64,000 nucleotides of DNA, from contig LBRU01000004.1 in the NCBI GenBank assembly GCA_000991575.1, forward strand, positions 8,909 to 72,908, written 5' to 3'. Source of the stretch: a candidate division TM6 bacterium GW2011_GWE2_36_25. GTDB lineage: Bacteria > Babelota > Babeliae > Babelales > UBA12409. Of this stretch, positions 3,904 to 56,034 are shown in pieces. Position 1 is the first letter of the stretch. Each line of letters begins with the position of its first letter. The position numbers were made by a program, and so were the translations under genes. A model generated the notes under the pieces. That model ran no database searches. It saw only the letters and a list, made by a program, of their open reading frames with translations, and was not told where the DNA came from.

Positions 3904-5319
3904 ATGAATAAGTTATCAAATATAGAAAAAGATTTTGCGCAATGGTATCAAGATGTTATTTATGCAGCTGAATTAGTTGATGAGACGTCAGTGCGAGGAT
4001 GTTACGTTATTCGTCCTTACGCATGGAAAATGTGGGAGCTTATCCAAGCTTATTTAGATGCGCGCATTAAGGAAACAGGTCATCAAAATGCAGCATTTCC
4101 GTTGTTAATTCCTGAATCATTTATTAAGCGTGAAGCAGAGCACGTTGAAGGCTTTTCTCCGGAATTAGCAGTTGTTACGATGGCAGGGGGTAAAAAATTA
4201 GAGGAACCACTCGTTATTCGCCCAACATCTGAAACGACTATTCATCATTCTTTTTCTCGATGGATTAAATCATGGCGTGACTTACCTCTTAAAATAAATC
4301 AGTGGGCAAATGTTGTTCGGTGGGAAATGCGTTCGCGTCCATTCTTGAGAACAACTGAATTTTTTTGGCAAGAGGGGCATACTGCTCATGAGACTAAGCA
4401 AGAAGCAGAAACTGAAGTTCAATTGATGCTCAATGAATATGTCTCATTTATTCAAGGACAATTAGCAATACCTGTTATCATTGGCCAAAAAACAGAAGTG
4501 GAAAAGTTTGCTGGTGCGGAAAAAACTTATGCAGTTGAAGCTATCATGCCTGATGGTAAATCACTTCAGATGTGTACTTCACATTTATTGTCACAAAATT
4601 TTGCAAAAGCTTTTAATATTACCTTTCAAGATCGTGGAAAAACCCAATCATATCCATATTTGACCAGTTGGGGAATTACAACACGAGTAATTGGTGCGAC
4701 AATTATGGTTCATGGTGATCAAAAAGGGCTTATTATTCCACCCGCAATTGCACCAATACAGGTTGTCGTTGTACCAATTTATAAAAATGATGATGAAAAA
4801 GATGCGGTACAAGCTCACTATGATTTTATTAAGACGGCACTTGCAGATTTTCGTATCTCATTTGATGAGGATATGAGTAAAACTCCGGGTGCTAAATTTT
4901 ATCATTGGGAATTGCGTGGAGTTCCCATTCGCTTAGAAATTGGCAAACGTGACGCCGACAAAGAACAAGTGGTTTTAGTCAATCGATTAACGGGTGAAAA
5001 AAACATTGTTCCATTTGATAAATTATCGACAACCGTAAAAATGTTATTAGAAAAACTTCAAAAAGATCTATATCAACGAGCTCATGAAAAAATGGACAAA
5101 TTGGTCTTTGTAGGCGAGAAACTCTCTGAATTTGGACCAAAGATGGCTGATGAAGCGGGTGCTTATATTACCGGATGGTGTGGTGATCCTGCCTGTGAAC
5201 AGGAATTAAAAAAATATAAAGCATTTACCCGATGCCTTCTAGAAACACATAAGCTTTCACAATGCATGTGTTGTGGTAAATCAAGTAAACGTGATGTTTT
5301 AGTTGCCAAGTCTTATTAA
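3904..5319 (+). CDS. proS: prolyl-tRNA synthetase (archaeal/eukaryote-like short type without insertion editing domain)
   Basis: FAQWYQDVI...AELVD...VRGCYVIRPYAWKMWE; class II motifs (RPTSET, FLRTTEFFWQEGHTAH). C-terminal Cys-rich domain ending in Tyr. Confidence 0.92.
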   Translation: MNKLSNIEKDFAQWYQDVIYAAELVDETSVRGCYVIRPYAWKMWELIQAYLDARIKETGHQNAAFPLLIPESFIKREAEHVEGFSPELAVVTMAGGKKLEEPLVIRPTSETTIHHSFSRWIKSWRDLPLKINQWANVVRWEMRSRPFLRTTEFFWQEGHTAHETKQEAETEVQLMLNEYVSFIQGQLAIPVIIGQKTEVEKFAGAEKTYAVEAIMPDGKSLQMCTSHLLSQNFAKAFNITFQDRGKTQSYPYLTSWGITTRVIGATIMVHGDQKGLIIPPAIAPIQVVVVPIYKNDDEKDAVQAHYDFIKTALADFRISFDEDMSKTPGAKFYHWELRGVPIRLEIGKRDADKEQVVLVNRLTGEKNIVPFDKLSTTVKMLLEKLQKDLYQRAHEKMDKLVFVGEKLSEFGPKMADEAGAYITGWCGDPACEQELKKYKAFTRCLLETHKLSQCMCCGKSSKRDVLVAKSY

Positions 5320-5326
5320 ATTTTAA

Positions 5327-5357
5327 GGAGGCGATGTTCTCGCCCCCCTGTTTTTTT
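5327..5357 (+). terminator. rho-independent terminator after proS
   Basis: GGAGGCGA / TCGCCCCC stem (one mismatch) followed by a T7 run, 8 nt after the proS stop. Confidence 0.6.
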
Positions 5358-5479
5358 ACGTCCCAAGCTTAATAATTATTTAAGTAGTGGGTTTATTGCA
5401 AGAGTTTTATATAAATTTTTATGGCAGCTAAGTTTTCAGGAGAAACTATTCTTTTTCAAAGGATTAGGAAAAAACGAGC

Positions 5480-6523
5480 TTATTCATAAGAAAATAAAGG
5501 TATTTTTTTGCATTGTGCAAGAGAATGTGCTGTTTCTCCGTCGCAATTTTCAATCGTTAGATCGACGTCTAAAGTTAAAAGATAATGTACGGTTGCTCGC
5601 TTTTTTGCAAGAAGTGCTCGCATGATAGGAGTATTACCATAAACATCAATTGCATCTTTTTGAGCTCCCTGTTCGATCAAAGATTTTACTAAGGGTATAT
5701 TACCTTGAGTTACTGCTTGAAACAATTGTGTATTCAACTGGCTTACTTTTAACAGATAAAGAGATATCTTGTGAAAGGCAATAGATTTTTGTGCCGCAGA
5801 ATAAGCTTTTGGTGTTATGCGATAAACTTTATCATCAATGGCAACAAGATTGTTTTCAAAGAAATAGGCCGTTCTTCTTTTATGCCGCGACGTTGTATAG
5901 TCTTCAAGCTCTTTTACAGATATTTCCTTATATGGTTGATCAAAATAAGCAATTTTCTCTTCTAAACGAAATTCATCACTTAAAAATTCTCCAAAAAGGT
6001 GATCATCTTGCGATGAGCCTCCGGGAAAATCTTTTTCTTCAAGTAATGTTCGAGGAAAACCAAAACACTCAGCTTTTTTTAATTTTTCATAGCTATATTC
6101 TTCGGCCAGCATGCGCGCAGTTTTTCCGTGTATATTTCGAGTATGAAGATGTGCACCCCTTTGAAGAATAATTTTCACCGCATCTAAGTTTTTTCCCATA
6201 ACAGCATACATCAGAGCAGTTTCTCCATCGTCATTTTGCATAGTTTTATCCGCACCGTGTTTCATGAGTTCCTCAATGAAATACGGGTTGTTCGCAAATG
6301 CAGCAACCATTAAAGGTGTGATGCCATATTTACCCGCTTGATTAACATCAGCATCTTCTTCAAGTAATTTTTGAAAAAGTTCTGCATCTTCAATGATAAT
6401 CGCATCTATAAGTTGTGTTATCTCATTTTCATCACATGCTTTTTGAGAAGATTCTTCCATGCAAAACAGAGCGCCAAAGAAGAAAAAAAAGAGTGTTAGA
6501 TGAAAGAATTTTAATATTTTCAT
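5480..6523 (-). CDS. secreted ankyrin-repeat protein
   Basis: Signal peptide (LTLFFFFFGALFC). ANK units (GITPLMVAAFANNPYFIEELMKHGADKTMQNDDGETALMYAV; C-terminal GNTPIMRALLAKKRATVHYLL) flank a non-ANK middle region. Confidence 0.85.
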   Translation of the reverse strand: MKILKFFHLTLFFFFFGALFCMEESSQKACDENEITQLIDAIIIEDAELFQKLLEEDADVNQAGKYGITPLMVAAFANNPYFIEELMKHGADKTMQNDDGETALMYAVMGKNLDAVKIILQRGAHLHTRNIHGKTARMLAEEYSYEKLKKAECFGFPRTLLEEKDFPGGSSQDDHLFGEFLSDEFRLEEKIAYFDQPYKEISVKELEDYTTSRHKRRTAYFFENNLVAIDDKVYRITPKAYSAAQKSIAFHKISLYLLKVSQLNTQLFQAVTQGNIPLVKSLIEQGAQKDAIDVYGNTPIMRALLAKKRATVHYLLTLDVDLTIENCDGETAHSLAQCKKIPLFSYE

Positions 6524-17843: not shown

Positions 17844-18269
17844 TTATCTGCATCTCCATTTATCAATATAGAAAACTTTTCCTTCTTTTACGAGAATGCA
17901 GGAGGCAATCCCTTCGTCCGTATCATGCTTAATTTCAGCGATAATACCAATCCGTTGTTCCTCATTACTTTCAATAACATGCGTTTTTATTTGACCATCA
18001 TAATCTATCCCATTTATATTTCCCCACCGAACAAATTTTTCGACCGTTTCATTTTGTTGATAGTATGAGTCAAACGATAAAACAACGTTATTAACAGTAT
18101 GATTCAGCAGACCCTCGAGAAGATATTTTCTTTGGTAATACTGATATTGATATTGTGCAACATGATAACATTTTACTGCTTGATATAAAATTACGGTCCC
18201 TACAATTAATGAAGAACTTACCAACAAGAATAGAACGAGTAAAATGTAACCGCTTCTTTTCTGCTTCAT
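17844..18269 (-). CDS. putative minor pseudopilin (GspK/PilX-like, lacks Glu5)
   Basis: N-terminus MKQKRSG|YILLVLFLLVSS. A 4-nt ATGA overlap with the upstream pseudopilin gene. Assignment rests on position and the N-terminal helix only. Confidence 0.45.
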   Translation of the reverse strand: MKQKRSGYILLVLFLLVSSSLIVGTVILYQAVKCYHVAQYQYQYYQRKYLLEGLLNHTVNNVVLSFDSYYQQNETVEKFVRWGNINGIDYDGQIKTHVIESNEEQRIGIIAEIKHDTDEGIASCILVKEGKVFYIDKWRCR

Positions 18270-18772
18270 AGGTTTCGATTTCTTAGTTTTATGGATGTCT
18301 GTATCAAGCGGCCATTATGCGTCAATGAAATGGTGATACAGTCAATAAATTCGCTGTTACTTTTTACCTGGAATAAAAAATCCGCAATATTCTCAAGGAC
18401 AACTGATTTATCTTTGGTTAACTGTGCGTTTTTTGTGTAAAAATGTGTGCGCTTCAAATTATGTTTTTTCTCATTAAATTGCCATGCCAGCGAACTTTCA
18501 TCGGATAAATAAAAATGAATATGGTAAGGCGAAATATTTTTGTAAGTACTTTTTTCACGCGGCGCCCCATCAAGATCAGTTCTCAATACCTGTAGCGCCG
18601 TATAACACAGACAATTGGATTGCCCTTTTGTTTCCAACGTACGAAAAAATGAACAAAATCGATAATTTAAATCAAAGGCAAAAACTATCAGCATTACGCT
18701 TAAGGCAATAGATAGCATTACCTCTAAAAGAGAAAATCCCCCTTGCTCATTAATCACCACGAATGCCCTCAA
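18266..18772 (-). CDS. prepilin-type N-terminal cleavage/methylation domain protein (minor pseudopilin, GspJ/PulJ-like)
   Basis: NEQGG|FSLLEVMLSIALSVML is the classic G/FxLLE prepilin peptidase site followed by a hydrophobic helix. Confidence 0.75.
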   Translation of the reverse strand: MRAFVVINEQGGFSLLEVMLSIALSVMLIVFAFDLNYRFCSFFRTLETKGQSNCLCYTALQVLRTDLDGAPREKSTYKNISPYHIHFYLSDESSLAWQFNEKKHNLKRTHFYTKNAQLTKDKSVVLENIADFLFQVKSNSEFIDCITISLTHNGRLIQTSIKLRNRNL

Positions 18773-46155: not shown

Positions 46156-47184
46156 ATGAAGCACTATATAAAAATTTTATTTTTTACACCACCTTTAATC
46201 ACTCTCTACGCAGGAAGAAACATCCATCGTTATCATCGCAAAGATATGCCTCGCATAACAGTCTGGAGCAGTGAAGACAAGACAAAATTTAAACTTGCCG
46301 ATTACAACTTAAGACCAATACCACTATTACACGTTTTTGATAAAAAACACTTTGAAGAAAACCTTATTCCCAAAGACGACATTGTATATCGCAATAGCAA
46401 TAAAAAAATCTCTTACCAAAAAATGAACGCCCTTATTAAAAATTTATTAGATGAAATTGATAAAAAAAACAAAGAATATACTGATTTCAAAATTCTCAAG
46501 GGAAGTGGGTTTGTCAGACATAAAAAATGTGGTCTTTTAGTTCTCAAATTTAAAGATCATCCATTCATTTTAAAATTATTTATCGAACCACCCTACAGTT
46601 TTGTTAATCCCTATGACAAAGGCTTTGAAGTCACCAATTTCTTTATCGCCGGAGGCGCATTACGACACTCACTCGGTTTCACCCGCATAAAGACATTAAA
46701 TTATGTACAACAGTACATCGACCAAAATCCAAAATGGAAAGACCATATCGCATTACCACGCAAATGGTTCTGGTTGCCCGAAAAACCGGTGTGGCTTTAC
46801 GTAAAAACTCATAATCTTGGCCAAAAGAAAAAGAATCTCATTACAATGCCTTCCACTTATGGCGTCCTTGCTGATGAACTGATTAAAGATTCGTCAAAAT
46901 CAACAGATTATTATGAGCTCATGGGGCTTTCGCAAGATCTGGAACATCGCATCGACCCTCATACAAAAAATTTTTTTATCGAAAAAGGAACAGGAAAAGT
47001 TGCTTTGATAGATACAGAACTCTTTCCGGTAATTTTCGGATTCAATGAAAAAATTAAACCTCATAATAGTCATGTACAATGGTACACGTATTTGGCGGGA
47101 AAATATCTCAAAGAAAAAGCCTGTACGTTTCATTATGAACGACGAGAGCGCCAATATAATATAAAACATTATTATGTTGATTGA
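46156..47184 (+). CDS. hypothetical protein with a protein-kinase-like motif series
   Basis: ILKGSGF (Gly-rich loop), LLVLKFK (beta3 Lys), RIDPHTKNFF (D-x4-N catalytic loop), ALIDTE (metal-binding Asp). N-terminal hydrophobic segment. Confidence 0.5.
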   Translation: MKHYIKILFFTPPLITLYAGRNIHRYHRKDMPRITVWSSEDKTKFKLADYNLRPIPLLHVFDKKHFEENLIPKDDIVYRNSNKKISYQKMNALIKNLLDEIDKKNKEYTDFKILKGSGFVRHKKCGLLVLKFKDHPFILKLFIEPPYSFVNPYDKGFEVTNFFIAGGALRHSLGFTRIKTLNYVQQYIDQNPKWKDHIALPRKWFWLPEKPVWLYVKTHNLGQKKKNLITMPSTYGVLADELIKDSSKSTDYYELMGLSQDLEHRIDPHTKNFFIEKGTGKVALIDTELFPVIFGFNEKIKPHNSHVQWYTYLAGKYLKEKACTFHYERRERQYNIKHYYVD

Positions 47185-48533
47185 AGGCTATTCTCAAGCT
47201 TCTCTAACACACTTTTTATAGACTCATTCGTATCTTGCACTTTTTGAATTTTACCAATTGCATGCGCAACGGTCGTATGATCTTTGCGTTTTAAAAATTG
47301 ACCAATATCTTGAAGCGATTTATCTGTTAATCGCTTCATCAAATACATTGCTATTTGACGAGCCAAGGCTATTTCTTTGCTCCTCAACTTTGATCTCAAT
47401 TCGGTCAACGTAAATGAATAATATTTTCCCACTGCCTCAGCAATCGATTCGAGTGTACATGATCTACACGCAATGCTTACGGGTGAATGGTTTAAAACTT
47501 TTTTAACAAGATCTAATGACACCGGTTGATTTGTAAGCGATGCAAATGCAAAGACACGAATAAGAGCACCTTCCAATTCTCGAATACTTGCTACTGATTG
47601 CGCAGCAATAAAATGAGCAACTTCATCAGAAATCGGCTCATGTGATAATTCCGCTTTCCTTTTTAAAATAGCAACCTTCTCCTCAATAGTCGGTTTTTGT
47701 ATATCAGTAACAAGGCCCCATCCCAAACGAGAACGCAACCGCTCAGGAATTCCTTTCATCTCAGTAGGATAAACATCACTGGATAAAACAATCTGCTTGG
47801 AAGATTCATATAACGTATTAAAAATATGAAAAAACGCTTCTTGCGTCTGATCTTTATGTGCAATAAATTGGATATCATCAATTAAAAGCACATCTACCGT
47901 TCTGTATTTTTCTTTAAAAAGATCAATTTTGTCAAAACGAATCGCATGAATAAACTCATTTACAAAACGATCGGCGGGCTGATATAAAACCGATAATTTT
48001 TTATATTCTTCTTTTATGGCATTACCAATGGCATGGAGTAAATGAGTCTTGCCTAAGCCAGAGCCCCCGTAAACAAATAAAGGATTATAAACTAATCCCG
48101 GTTTTTTAGTAACCGCATAAGCAGCAGCATATGACAATGAATTACTTGGACCAACCACAAATGTATCAAAGAGATAGGTTTTATTAATTGATATTTTTTT
48201 AGCTTTAACCTGTGGCACAGAAGATGATTCTTCTTGAGGAGCTAATCGCGCAGGAACAACGGTGCAACTTACCTGTTCCTCATGATCGATAAAGGTAACT
48301 TCCAAAGAATCAACTGCAAAAAGGCGCCCCAGATGCTCATAAAAAAGATGAAGATAATTATTGCGAACCCATTCACGAACAAAATGATTTGGCGCCTTAA
48401 GATATACGATACAATTGCAGGAGTCCCACCGTTCAATCGAAACAGCTTTTAACCATGTTTCAACAACACGGCTTCCTTCTTCTTGTTTCACAATATCCAA
48501 AAAATTTTGCCAAATTTGATTTATTGCAGCCAT
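47172..48533 (-). CDS. dnaA: chromosomal replication initiator DnaA
   Basis: GGSGLGKTHLLHAIGN (Walker A), LLIDDIQFI (Walker B), SDVYP (sensor region), and the C-terminal DNA-binding helix KRKDHTTVAHAI. Confidence 0.96.
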   Translation of the reverse strand: MAAINQIWQNFLDIVKQEEGSRVVETWLKAVSIERWDSCNCIVYLKAPNHFVREWVRNNYLHLFYEHLGRLFAVDSLEVTFIDHEEQVSCTVVPARLAPQEESSSVPQVKAKKISINKTYLFDTFVVGPSNSLSYAAAYAVTKKPGLVYNPLFVYGGSGLGKTHLLHAIGNAIKEEYKKLSVLYQPADRFVNEFIHAIRFDKIDLFKEKYRTVDVLLIDDIQFIAHKDQTQEAFFHIFNTLYESSKQIVLSSDVYPTEMKGIPERLRSRLGWGLVTDIQKPTIEEKVAILKRKAELSHEPISDEVAHFIAAQSVASIRELEGALIRVFAFASLTNQPVSLDLVKKVLNHSPVSIACRSCTLESIAEAVGKYYSFTLTELRSKLRSKEIALARQIAMYLMKRLTDKSLQDIGQFLKRKDHTTVAHAIGKIQKVQDTNESIKSVLEKLENSLQST

Positions 48534-50675: not shown

Positions 50676-51707
50676 TTAATCTCGAGGCTCAATTACATAT
50701 GCAAGACGTCCTGAATTTTCCCAAGCTTTTAAAAATTCATTGATATCATAGGCATGCAAAACATCTTTGGAAGAAGAAAAAGCGGGATCAAAGCAAATAA
50801 CTTTTTTATGGCTATTATCCCACCCAGCAACAACCAACAGATGTCCCTCGCTATAAGTTTTTCCTTCAGGCATCGTCTTTAAGGGTCCACGTACACTTAC
50901 AACAACCGGAAGACGTTTTTTTAAATAATCATATAATTCAGCAAATTGATTAAAACGAGTTACAGAAAAATAAAAACGCCCTCTACACCGATCAAACGCA
51001 TGTGCCACATTAAAGGGCCAGCTCCCATACGTTTCTAAACCATAATCATATACATCTTCAGCAAAAGACTCTGGAGCCTCATACTTTCCGTTCAAATATG
51101 AAACAACCATACTTAACGACGCTGGCGAACAAATACGATTACGCTCTCGATGCTGCGCTTCCATCTGTGAAATAGCTGGCATATGTTTAATCGCAATAGA
51201 TGGCAAAGAAAAATTTAAATCATTGCCACGCTCAGAAACAAATGATGGATAATGTACTGCAGCAAAAGAAAGTCTATAAACCAAATCTAAAGAAGCGCCG
51301 CCAAAACCTTCAACTTTAACACGACACTTGTCAGCTACATGTCCCTTTGGCATTTGCCAGCGCACATAAAAAAAAGATGGATCATTTTCAATGCTTTGTT
51401 CAAAAGAACGCTGAACACCCTTTCCCCATTCAGCAATACGCGCCCAATTACTCCATCGCTGCGTGGTTGCATCATACACTTGCATAGAAAACAGGTACTT
51501 CCCTTCAAGAGGACGCACAACATTCCACGAAAATAAAATTTGCGTTGCAAGCGACGATAATTCTTTTTTTACAATGACAGAATTGCGATAACGCATTAAA
51601 GATCTTTGCGCATCATTAAATGTTACAAAAGAAAGGGCTGACCATTGCTCTGCAAAACAACAATGAGCCATGAGAAACAAAATTGTAAATCGCACAAAAC
51701 CCTTCAT
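50676..51707 (-). CDS. secreted C39-like (papain-fold) cysteine peptidase domain protein
   Basis: Signal peptide present. ICSPASLSMVVSYLNG (nucleophile Cys context) and EGHLLVVAGWD (His). Confidence 0.6.
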   Translation of the reverse strand: MKGFVRFTILFLMAHCCFAEQWSALSFVTFNDAQRSLMRYRNSVIVKKELSSLATQILFSWNVVRPLEGKYLFSMQVYDATTQRWSNWARIAEWGKGVQRSFEQSIENDPSFFYVRWQMPKGHVADKCRVKVEGFGGASLDLVYRLSFAAVHYPSFVSERGNDLNFSLPSIAIKHMPAISQMEAQHRERNRICSPASLSMVVSYLNGKYEAPESFAEDVYDYGLETYGSWPFNVAHAFDRCRGRFYFSVTRFNQFAELYDYLKKRLPVVVSVRGPLKTMPEGKTYSEGHLLVVAGWDNSHKKVICFDPAFSSSKDVLHAYDINEFLKAWENSGRLAYVIEPRD

Positions 51708-55045: not shown

Positions 55046-55933
55046 CTATATTCCGCACCTTCGCGCACAAGATCGAATTTTATGCCCAAAATAACGCAGA
55101 AAGTTCATCCGGCTCGTACATTTTAAACGATCCTGCAAGATATCAACAACATCCCAATGATCATACATTTTTGCCAAATCCAACGCAGAAAGGCCGCGCG
55201 CTGTTTTTATATTTAAATCGATAAGTGGAGATGTTAATAATCGTTTAACAACAACGGCATAACCATTTATTGCTGCCCATATAAGTACTGTATAACCAAA
55301 TACATCTTTTATGTTTGGATTGGCTCCGTGATCCAACAACAAGCCAACAATCTCTTCATGTTGATGATCAATAGCTAACCTCAATGCAGTATATCCATAA
55401 AGTTCTTCCTTCATGTCTAAATCGAGATCCTCCCGAGCTAACAATAAACGAACGATCTGACGATCACCGTTCATTGCGGCTACCATCAGCGCAGAATAAC
55501 CACCCATATCTTGCATATTAACTGATACATCCGGAAAAACTAATAACTCATTAATGCAAACCATATTTCTTGTGCGAACAGCATGCAAAAACAATAATTC
55601 TTGCGCGCGCGAACGCAATTCACTAAAATCATGTGATCGTCGAAACGAAAGAAACGCCTCCCATTCTCTAAAATTCGCAATTTGCGCTTCGCATAATGGA
55701 CACGTTACTCCAATACCTTTTTGTTGCAACCATTTAATAAAACACTCTCGACAATACGGATGTGAACACTTGAAGAAAATTTCTTTTTTCACTGTTTGAT
55801 CAATTTGTTGCACAGAAAACTCATCAGCAAAACATCGCAAACACATGGGACATATCTCAGACTCAATCTCCATAGAATTTAAAAAGGAAATTGATAGAAA
55901 AAACACGAGCTTCACAACTGTTTTTAACATCAA
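55046..55933 (-). CDS. RING-finger (C3HC4) plus ankyrin-repeat protein with a signal-like N-terminus
   Basis: C28-x2-C31-x24-C56-x-H58-x2-C61-x2-C64-x13-C78-x2-C81, followed by at least 4 ANK units (GYSALMVAAMNGDRQIVRLLL.., GYTVLIWAAINGYAVVVKRLL). Confidence 0.85.
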   Translation of the reverse strand: MMLKTVVKLVFFLSISFLNSMEIESEICPMCLRCFADEFSVQQIDQTVKKEIFFKCSHPYCRECFIKWLQQKGIGVTCPLCEAQIANFREWEAFLSFRRSHDFSELRSRAQELLFLHAVRTRNMVCINELLVFPDVSVNMQDMGGYSALMVAAMNGDRQIVRLLLAREDLDLDMKEELYGYTALRLAIDHQHEEIVGLLLDHGANPNIKDVFGYTVLIWAAINGYAVVVKRLLTSPLIDLNIKTARGLSALDLAKMYDHWDVVDILQDRLKCTSRMNFLRYFGHKIRSCARRCGI

Positions 55934-56034
55934 TTTCCTTTTTAAAATTATTATAACTAAATCTAAGAATTTTTAGAAAGTACGAGCATAAAAAACTTCT
56001 ATTCGATTAAGCTGAACATTAACCCGATCCAACT

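Follow-up and report, generated by a model that had tools for sequence, protein, structure and literature searches.

The stretch of DNA analysed here, referred to below as the window, covers 64,000 nucleotides of contig LBRU01000004.1 from the candidate division TM6 (Dependentiae) bacterium GW2011_GWE2_36_25, and our subject is a single gene on its reverse strand whose product joins a hydrophobic leader, a RING finger and a set of ankyrin repeats in one chain (hereafter the RING-ankyrin protein). The open reading frame (ORF) that the original prediction had placed at 55046..55933(-) is present as read. Its coding sequence (CDS) begins at an ATG at 55930, one codon after the TTG from which the earlier reading had started, and occupies 55046..55930(-), encoding 294 amino acids plus a stop codon; this extent is backed by gene callers, which use the same ATG in independent assemblies, and by the pattern of substitutions against an ortholog (see below). 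All residue numbers herein are counted from the ATG and are one lower than those first given. A Shine-Dalgarno-like AAGGAAA, read directly from the sequence, lies 3-5 nt 5' of the ATG (55934..55940(-)), and the GGAAATTGATG block that makes up the start region is conserved in the locus of the ortholog (L002), the remaining upstream DNA carrying indels. A promoter scan at the gene gave nothing above the shuffled expectation. The protein is deposited at NCBI under KKP95534.1, KKQ03242.1, HBR70329.1 and HCU00874.1, in each case as a “hypothetical protein”.

The RING finger, of the RING-HC (C3HC4) type, spans residues 27-80 (55691..55852(-)) and was recovered by motif, Pfam model, family profile and structure model alike. 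Its zinc ligands form the pattern C27-x2-C30-x24-C55-x-H57-x2-C60-x2-C63-x13-C77-x2-C80, with observed spacings (2/24/1/2/2/13/2) that were tested against the consensus C-x2-C-x(9-39)-C-x(1-3)-H-x(2-3)-C-x2-C-x(4-48)-C-x2-C. When this expression was run over all six frames of the window it returned a single match, exactly where the C3HC4 pattern had been predicted, and it returned no match in 300 shuffles of the residues of the window ORFs. All eight ligands are kept in the ortholog (P0002), which is 78% identical. With the Pfam model zf-C3HC4 (PF00097) the domain reaches 25.8 bits, above the curated cut-off of 21, at E 9.9e-6 and along all 40 model positions, so the search with RING hidden Markov models proposed alongside the prediction succeeded for this family, whereas zf-RING_2, the other family named for it, stayed slightly under its own cut-off, as did zf-C3HC4_2. 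No other zinc-finger class in Pfam reaches its cut-off. A U-box identity was rejected, all eight Cys/His ligands being present and zf-RING_UBOX scoring 15.8 bits against a cut-off of 25.2, and a prokaryote-specific RING identity was rejected likewise (Prok-RING_4, PF14447, 12.6 bits against 27).

In an alignment of the domain with the 14 most similar RING segments, the only invariant columns are the eight ligands, Trp67 and Pro78. The profile built from these 15 sequences matches 184 distinct solved sequences of RING-type E3 ubiquitin ligases (E3s), with RNF4 (1.4e-23), RING1B/BMI1, TRIM32, the EHV-1 RING and BRCA1 among the best matches, and the single RING sequence taken alone matches BRCA1 at 1e-4. 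An AlphaFold model of the RING alone has a mean predicted local distance difference test (pLDDT) score of 72 and is predicted to form two strands (49-51 and 58-60) and a helix (61-71) directly after C60-C63, i.e., a beta-beta-alpha core. Among its matches in the PDB by Foldseek, the best 50 are all RING or U-box E3s, many of them solved with ubiquitin-conjugating enzymes (E2s) and many superposing at a root-mean-square deviation (rmsd) of 1.7-2.7 A over ~60 residues; they include TRIM32, TRIM21, APC11, RNF125, TRAF6, RNF165 and BRCA1. The claim of a canonical RING-HC domain is therefore borne out by PF00097 above its cut-off, by RNF4, TRIM32 and BRCA1 among the family-profile matches, and by a modelled fold shared with RING and U-box E3s.

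Three positions of the domain bear on its possible partner. We take the positions C1+2, C6+4 and C7+1 to be E2-contact sites, going by the known c-Cbl and RNF4 complexes. In the window protein these hydrophobic positions are occupied, in canonical fashion, by Met29, Trp67 and Pro78, of which Trp67 and Pro78 line up with the corresponding residues of RNF4 and BRCA1.

The ankyrin-repeat domain (residues 116-270, 55121..55585(-)) is supported by Pfam, by pLDDT and by Foldseek. Ank_2 (residues 116-209) scores 85 bits and Ank (178-209) 80 bits, and Ank_3, Ank_4 and Ank_5 (the last over 198-253) are likewise above their cut-offs. In the full-length AlphaFold model (pLDDT 78) four ankyrin helix pairs are placed with high confidence at residues 143-270 (pLDDT 94-98), in agreement with the at least four repeats originally counted. 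Foldseek searches with the full-length model matched designed ankyrin repeat proteins (DARPins) and KANK ankyrin domains (KANK3) at E 1e-8, matches that mainly reflect the ankyrin repeats. Between the two domains lies a segment (residues 81-115, 55586..55690(-)) with a modelled post-RING helix (87-97) and a linker of low pLDDT, a possible N-terminal capping repeat; more precisely, the low-confidence stretch of about residues 100-140, which falls partly inside the Ank_2 match, may in the model represent such a cap. The C-terminus (residues 271-294, 55049..55120(-)) is modelled as a basic helix and tail, the AlphaFold helix running over residues 259-292, and ends in RRCGI (55049..55063(-)); both this motif and the KIRS ahead of it persist in the ortholog, in a tail that otherwise diverges. 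Prenylation through a CaaX box was considered for this end and rejected, the Cys of RRCGI standing at -3 and not at -4. In the JGI data a variant of 310 amino acids (P0159) ends in a different and longer sequence, for which a frameshift probably accounts.

As judged by the Nei-Gojobori comparison of coding sequences with the ortholog, the gene is under purifying selection, with an overall ratio of nonsynonymous to synonymous substitution rates (dN/dS) of 0.21. By region the ratio is lowest in the ankyrin domain (0.125), followed by the RING (0.20), the leader (0.32), the tail (0.36) and the linker (residues 87-135, 0.41).

The N-terminal Sec-type leader (residues 1-19, 55874..55930(-)) has the sequence MLKTVVKLVFFLSISFLNS and is marked by its hydrophobicity, its predicted cleavage and the lack of indels against the ortholog. 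It is predicted to comprise an n-region MLKTVVK, a 10-residue h-region LVFFLSISFL and a cleavage site ..LNS|ME, with Ser at -1 and Leu at -3 before Met20. AT-rich DNA upstream of a gene can mimic a hydrophobic peptide, and Met20 was considered as the real start with the leader spurious; this was ruled out by the conserved Shine-Dalgarno/ATG block and by the indel-free leader. Upstream of the shared GGAAATTGATG the DNA differs from the ortholog by three indels of 8-13 nt and is of low identity, whereas the 57 nt of the leader carry none from the ATG onward, which shows that the leader is translated. The hydrophobic leader that had been noted ahead of the RING is thus present and part of the protein.

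Six of the 57 window ORFs encode an N-terminal hydrophobic leader with [G/A/S/C]-Met-Glu immediately behind it, where ~0.1 would be expected given that the tripeptide is found once in the remaining 16,533 residues of the window proteins. These ORFs lie at 5480..6523(-), 32143..32700(+), 39965..43585(-), 55046..55930(-), 58760..60190(-) and 60274..60714(-), and encode four ankyrin proteins (the RING-ankyrin protein included), one C2H2-finger protein and one protein of no known type. The junction was absent from the unrelated bacterial ankyrin proteins found by homology search. From its sequence context it may be a lineage-specific signature of effector cleavage or export, or it may mark an internal alternative start. 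The C2H2-finger protein (32143..32700(+), 185 amino acids) has, in addition to the junction, a KRRK stretch and two C2H2 fingers with a Krueppel-type linker (HMGERPFKC); its Pfam zf-C2H2 score of 23.4 falls slightly short of the cut-off of 25.2. The protein has the look of a secreted DNA-binding protein of eukaryotic style and is a candidate nucleomodulin. The ORF at 39965..43585(-) encodes a 1206-residue ankyrin protein with a leader (Ank_2 335 bits over eight stretches), which is the best match in the window to a RING-H2-ankyrin protein from another source (P0003, see below). Separately, 50676..51707(-) encodes 343 residues that combine a leader and a Peptidase_C39_2 domain with a marginal Kelch motif, and possibly represents another exported host-interaction protein.

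Signal peptides were found on 78% of the ankyrin proteins of Chromulinavorax (Deeg et al., PMC6561590), and the TM6 core includes a type II secretion system in which gspD is present twice (Yeoh et al., PMC4776705). Within the window, two adjoining small ORFs at 17844..18772(-), among them a pseudopilin-like gene at 18266..18772, have pseudopilin-like N-termini (GFSLLEVML) with an N_methyl score of 20.8 bits against a cut-off of 21.2; by sequence they are consistent with the type II secretion and type IV pilus genes reported as TM6 core (PMC4776705). Because of the Chromulinavorax signal peptides, the core secretion system and the pseudopilin-like gene, Sec export with subsequent release through type II secretion or vesicles appears the most likely route for the RING-ankyrin protein.

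The surroundings of the gene are those of a bacterial chromosome. A tRNA-Arg(CCT) lies directly upstream on the same strand (56128..56204(-)), with a second tRNA-Arg (TCG) 2 kb from the first and again on the same strand (58154..58230(-)), and the nearby genes encode a NUDIX protein, DUF6790, a DbpA-type DEAD-box helicase, GlyRS, HtrA, TlyA and DnaA. Since dnaA (47172..48533(-)) lies within the window, 7 kb from the RING-ankyrin gene, the window is probably near the replication origin. At 0.38 G+C (GC) and 0.32 GC at third codon positions (GC3), the gene falls within ~1 standard deviation of the 57 window ORFs (window GC 35.7%). The exact protein occurs on 13 contigs (NCBI, JGI, ENA and Logan) of up to 124 kb, with candidate division TM6 and Candidatus Dependentiae as the names given, and the Logan contig that carries the 78%-identical ortholog preserves the order NUDIX, DUF6790, 193-aa ORF, RING-ankyrin gene and helicase. 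The 193-aa ORF (56264..56845(-)), which immediately precedes the tRNA and the RING gene and keeps its syntenic position in both related contigs, has a leader and no Pfam family; its VETGTFRGD is reminiscent in sequence of motif I of S-adenosylmethionine (SAM) methyltransferases, and its sole PADLOC match is weak, to “mad2”.

This setting decides against an artefact, whether a mis-binned or chimeric gene of eukaryotic or viral origin or a chance array of cysteines. The domain types are typically eukaryotic, and a distant protein with the same domain order, the 475-residue RING-H2-ankyrin protein P0003 (29% identity), sits on a 51%-GC contig that is not bacterial-looking. Nevertheless, the window gene has a Shine-Dalgarno sequence, no introns, tRNA and housekeeping neighbours and matching GC, it recurs in independent assemblies and retains its synteny around the ortholog, and the chance expectation of the ligand pattern is ~0, so that we hold such an origin to be extremely unlikely. 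Owing to the synteny, the neighbours, the GC and the repeated independent assemblies, contamination or chimerism is excluded for practical purposes, and the protein is a bacterial one, as claimed, from an authentic Dependentiae/TM6 genome.

The relatives of the protein are few. A HMMER pass with the RING region (residues 20-105) against 1.84 billion representative proteins gave 24 matches at E<=1e-3, the ortholog ranking first and P0135 next (3e-9), with eukaryotic matches appearing from 4e-7 onward as short alignments; eukaryotic RINGs reach at best about 25-45% identity along 30-50 residues. The closest RINGs outside the ortholog (E 3e-9 to 3e-4) belong to a family of signal-peptide RING proteins, namely P0135, P0138, P0149 and the ORF 4296..5378 of locus L007. 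They resemble the RING-ankyrin protein in their N-terminal signal peptide, in lying on bacterial contigs and in the common motif C-x2-C-[FIL]-x2-W-x3-K-G-x3-[TS]-C-P-x-C, and differ from it in that their RINGs are C-terminal to an unrelated helical domain, that ankyrin repeats are lacking, and that the linchpin, the residue after the last Cys, is mostly Arg. Known loci of this family are 8001..8771 of L004 (P0149), 6392..7399 of L006 (P0135) and the L007 ORF (P0246), to which P0138 and P0155 are added; the helical domain is combined with one to three RING-like motifs, one or two canonical C3HC4 RINGs in P0135, P0138, P0149 and P0246 and three degenerate motifs in P0155. On their low-GC bacterial contigs, P0135 and P0149 share a conserved locus, with KsgA and LOG ahead of the RING protein and with GT4, an AMP-binding enzyme and a ferredoxin after it; the L007 ORF adjoins a SET-domain gene in a metagenome-assembled genome (MAG) labelled “Proteobacteria”. 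A tblastn comparison of the P0135 and P0149 contigs with the window found no common housekeeping genes, and scans for the secreted-RING family gave the one match in the “Proteobacteria” MAG and ten weak RING-only matches in metagenomes.

Scans with the ortholog alignment found no relative in GTDB species representatives, JGI metagenomes or IMG/VR, and a word-index protein search with the RING region alone found no match, which is a limit of the word index; the same search with the RING alignment returned only proteins of <=142 amino acids, all the named ones eukaryotic, and is uninformative on bacterial relatives. Either the RING-ankyrin family is very narrow or the search patterns were too specific. 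BLAST for the origin of the ankyrin domain gave generic matches of 35-45% to many ankyrin proteins, a window paralog included, and no clear donor. The horizontal acquisition that the original prediction had proposed was accordingly not borne out: no close eukaryotic donor was found, the best match outside the ortholog is a signal-peptide RING protein on a bacterial contig, and GC and GC3 are typical of the window. The lack of compositional deviation argues against a recent transfer. The architecture looks eukaryotic or viral in style, and from these data neither a donor nor a date of transfer can be named.

A further reading would make the protein part of a ubiquitin-like conjugation system encoded by the bacterium itself, with bacterial or phage proteins as its substrates, since operons of this kind with RING-like E3s exist in bacteria (PMC10557695; PMC11601596). 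We consider this very unlikely. Neither the neighbouring genes in the window nor those on the two syntenic contigs include an E1, E2, JAB or ubiquitin-like gene, the RING falls far below the Prok-RING_4 cut-off (12.6 against 27 bits), its PADLOC match is that of a generic ankyrin protein, and a signal peptide combined with ankyrin repeats is in keeping with an exported effector. Among the window proteins PADLOC returned only generic ankyrin and helicase matches, and a defence-system reading was rejected on this ground.

The reading that we favour, and regard as probable, is that the RING-ankyrin protein is a secreted effector of an intracellular Dependentiae (TM6) bacterium, namely a RING-type E3 ubiquitin ligase in a single chain that targets host proteins; taken broadly, and going by its sequence and models, manipulation of host ubiquitin is the most reasonable reading of the protein. 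The gene would be translated from the ATG at 55930 with its 19-residue Sec-type leader, which is coding, and the product would be exported across the inner membrane with cleavage at about S19|M20. Release from the cell would most plausibly follow through the TM6-core type II secretion system, or by vesicles, a step for which we draw on the literature. Once in the host cytosol, residues 27-80 would bind two zinc ions and adopt the cross-brace RING-HC fold, and the RING would dock a host E2~ubiquitin conjugate through Met29, Trp67 and Pro78, as homology and the model suggest. The four to five ankyrin repeats (116-270) would hold a host protein, which would then be ubiquitinated.

Several observations weigh against this reading. 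The RING model is of only moderate confidence, and its Foldseek E-values are weak (>=6e-3) because the domain is so small. The family is tiny, consisting of this species and one ortholog in the collections searched. The leader has Leu at -3 and a short h-region, so that an uncleaved membrane anchor in place of a cleaved leader is possible, and a cysteine-rich zinc domain would need to cross the periplasm without mis-oxidation. Further, the linchpin, a residue that activates the E2~ubiquitin conjugate by holding it in the closed state and is normally Arg or Lys, is Glu81 in the window protein and Gln in its ortholog; Arg occupies the position in RNF4 and in most of the aligned relatives, and Lys in BRCA1. 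Glu at the linchpin lowers activity in tested RINGs, and the effect of linchpin substitutions ranges from a minor loss to abolished activity, XIAP Y485E for example being less active than the wild type (Nakasone et al. 2025, PMC12326332). On the other hand, active RING E3s without an Arg linchpin are known, such as XIAP (Tyr) and Doa10 (His) (PMC12326332), and as these lack it the feature is not strictly defining for RING E3s. By every sequence and fold criterion tested the domain is a member of the RING-HC family, the linchpin residue being the one departure. Given Glu81, a high intrinsic ligase activity is not to be assumed for the RING-ankyrin protein; the residue suggests weak or E2-selective activity, dependence on another element, or non-catalytic binding of E2. 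Should the protein be a ligase, it would probably have low activity, work with particular E2s only, or need another element.

Non-catalytic binding is the essence of an alternative in which the RING would act as an E2 trap or dominant negative, docking the host E2 without activating transfer and thereby sequestering it, or blocking a host partner of the ankyrin repeats. The Glu81/Gln81 linchpin combined with intact E2-contact residues is what such a trap might look like, and substitutions at this position can abolish activity or, as in XIAP Y485E, leave it worse than in the wild type (PMC12326332). The examples of XIAP and Doa10 count against the trap, as does the stronger constraint on the ankyrin domain than on the RING, which is expected of a substrate adaptor, and no precedent appeared in the literature searched; we therefore judge it improbable.

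The points raised by the leader bear on a second alternative, namely that the protein has a role in the cell envelope without ubiquitin: the leader would be an anchor or a periplasmic signal, and the RING and ankyrin repeats together would form a zinc-stabilised scaffold that may bind host structures from outside. The short h-region and the Leu at -3 fit this, many unrelated bacteria have periplasmic ankyrin proteins with signal peptides, and we know of no type III or type IV injection systems in Dependentiae. Moreover, only type II system and type IV pilus components are listed for TM6 (PMC4776705). The scaffold leaves the three E2-contact positions hard to explain, as these are occupied as in eukaryotic E3s and are invariant in the relatives, which is difficult to account for without E2 binding, and the lineage encodes other mimics of the ubiquitin system (PMC4378268). 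We regard a purely envelope-bound role as unlikely, on a par with the trap, and retain the secreted E3 ligase as the favoured reading.

The bacterial E3 mimics that have been studied at the bench are U-box-like, NEL, HECT-like or SidC-type ligases or F-box adaptors. To our knowledge a genuine zinc RING-HC effector from a bacterium has only been predicted and never characterised, and the literature searched likewise held no biochemically characterised canonical zinc RING effector from bacteria, only predictions; neither did it describe a bacterial RING-ankyrin fusion, nor contain a Dependentiae study of one. The RING-ankyrin protein is thus a further case of a kind already predicted, that of bacterial RINGs aimed at host ubiquitin. 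More tentatively, it is possible that it would be the first canonical zinc-binding RING-HC E3 to serve as a bacterial effector by way of Sec and type II secretion and not by injection, within a lineage-specific set of leader-[G/A/S/C]-Met-Glu effectors (in the window, four ankyrin proteins and one Krueppel-type C2H2 protein), and with a Glu linchpin perhaps tuned to a protist E2. The protein is small (275 amino acids when mature) and conserved in the ortholog. It could show whether Dependentiae, a phylum of widespread but hardly cultured parasites with no known injection systems, use Sec-exported proteins to rewire ubiquitination in protists, and could reveal the host protein selected by the ankyrin repeats. 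The leader-Met-Glu junction, for its part, could serve as a practical rule for listing effectors in Dependentiae genomes.

Compared with eukaryotic RING-HC E3s such as BRCA1, RNF4 and TRIM32, the window protein has the same ligand set and spacing, the same modelled cross-brace fold and the same E2-contact residues, and differs in being bacterial, in its Sec-type leader seven residues before the first Cys and in its Glu linchpin; in addition, it is without the N-terminal-side flanking helices of BRCA1- or TRIM-type dimerisation. Among bacteria, the original prediction had implied a rarity that turned out to be overstated, as RING or RING/U-box proteins were earlier reported in Babela massiliensis, in the NEX1b family of Parachlamydiaceae and in Cardinium (PMC3486910). 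Babela, a member of TM6, encodes a RING finger protein (a predicted E3 component), an F-box protein and deubiquitinases (Pagnier et al. 2015, PMC4378268); its RING protein shares the phylum and the inferred host-ubiquitin purpose of ours, a comparison made by description only, the text of that paper giving no architecture. NEX1b of Parachlamydiaceae has an N-terminal RING/U-box and leucine-rich repeats (Domman et al. 2014, PMC4209131), and is alike in coming from an amoeba-associated bacterium, in placing an E3 domain ahead of repeats presumed to bind substrate, and in being known from sequence only. Compared by description, it differs in having leucine-rich in place of ankyrin repeats and in belonging to another phylum, and NEX1b is a massively expanded family whereas the window protein is present as one copy in 64 kb plus one ortholog.

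Outside bacteria, structural searches of BFVD with the full-length model, in which ankyrin repeats again dominated, pointed to E3-ankyrin proteins of giant viruses, namely B5LWJ8 of Feldmannia species virus (“putative ubiquitin ligase/ankyrin repeat protein”) and a Tupanvirus U-box protein. These are viral, have no leader and are only 14-20% identical to the window protein, with a high rmsd because the relative orientation of the domains is not fixed, yet they are of similar size, combine an E3 finger with ankyrin repeats and align structurally over the full length (321 and 332 columns). A further counterpart is AnkB of Legionella pneumophila, an effector in which ankyrin repeats are coupled to a ubiquitin-ligase module of eukaryotic origin (PMC2790608); the likeness lies in this coupling within a bacterial effector. 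An AnkB-type F-box-ankyrin-CaaX identity was rejected for the window protein, which has no F-box match in Pfam and its C-terminal Cys at -3. AnkB, with its F-box, ankyrin repeats and CaaX box, is a farnesylated adaptor of the host SCF complex that is injected by Dot/Icm, whereas the RING-ankyrin protein, with a Sec leader and an RRCGI end in place of a CaaX box, would bind the E2 directly through a RING of its own.

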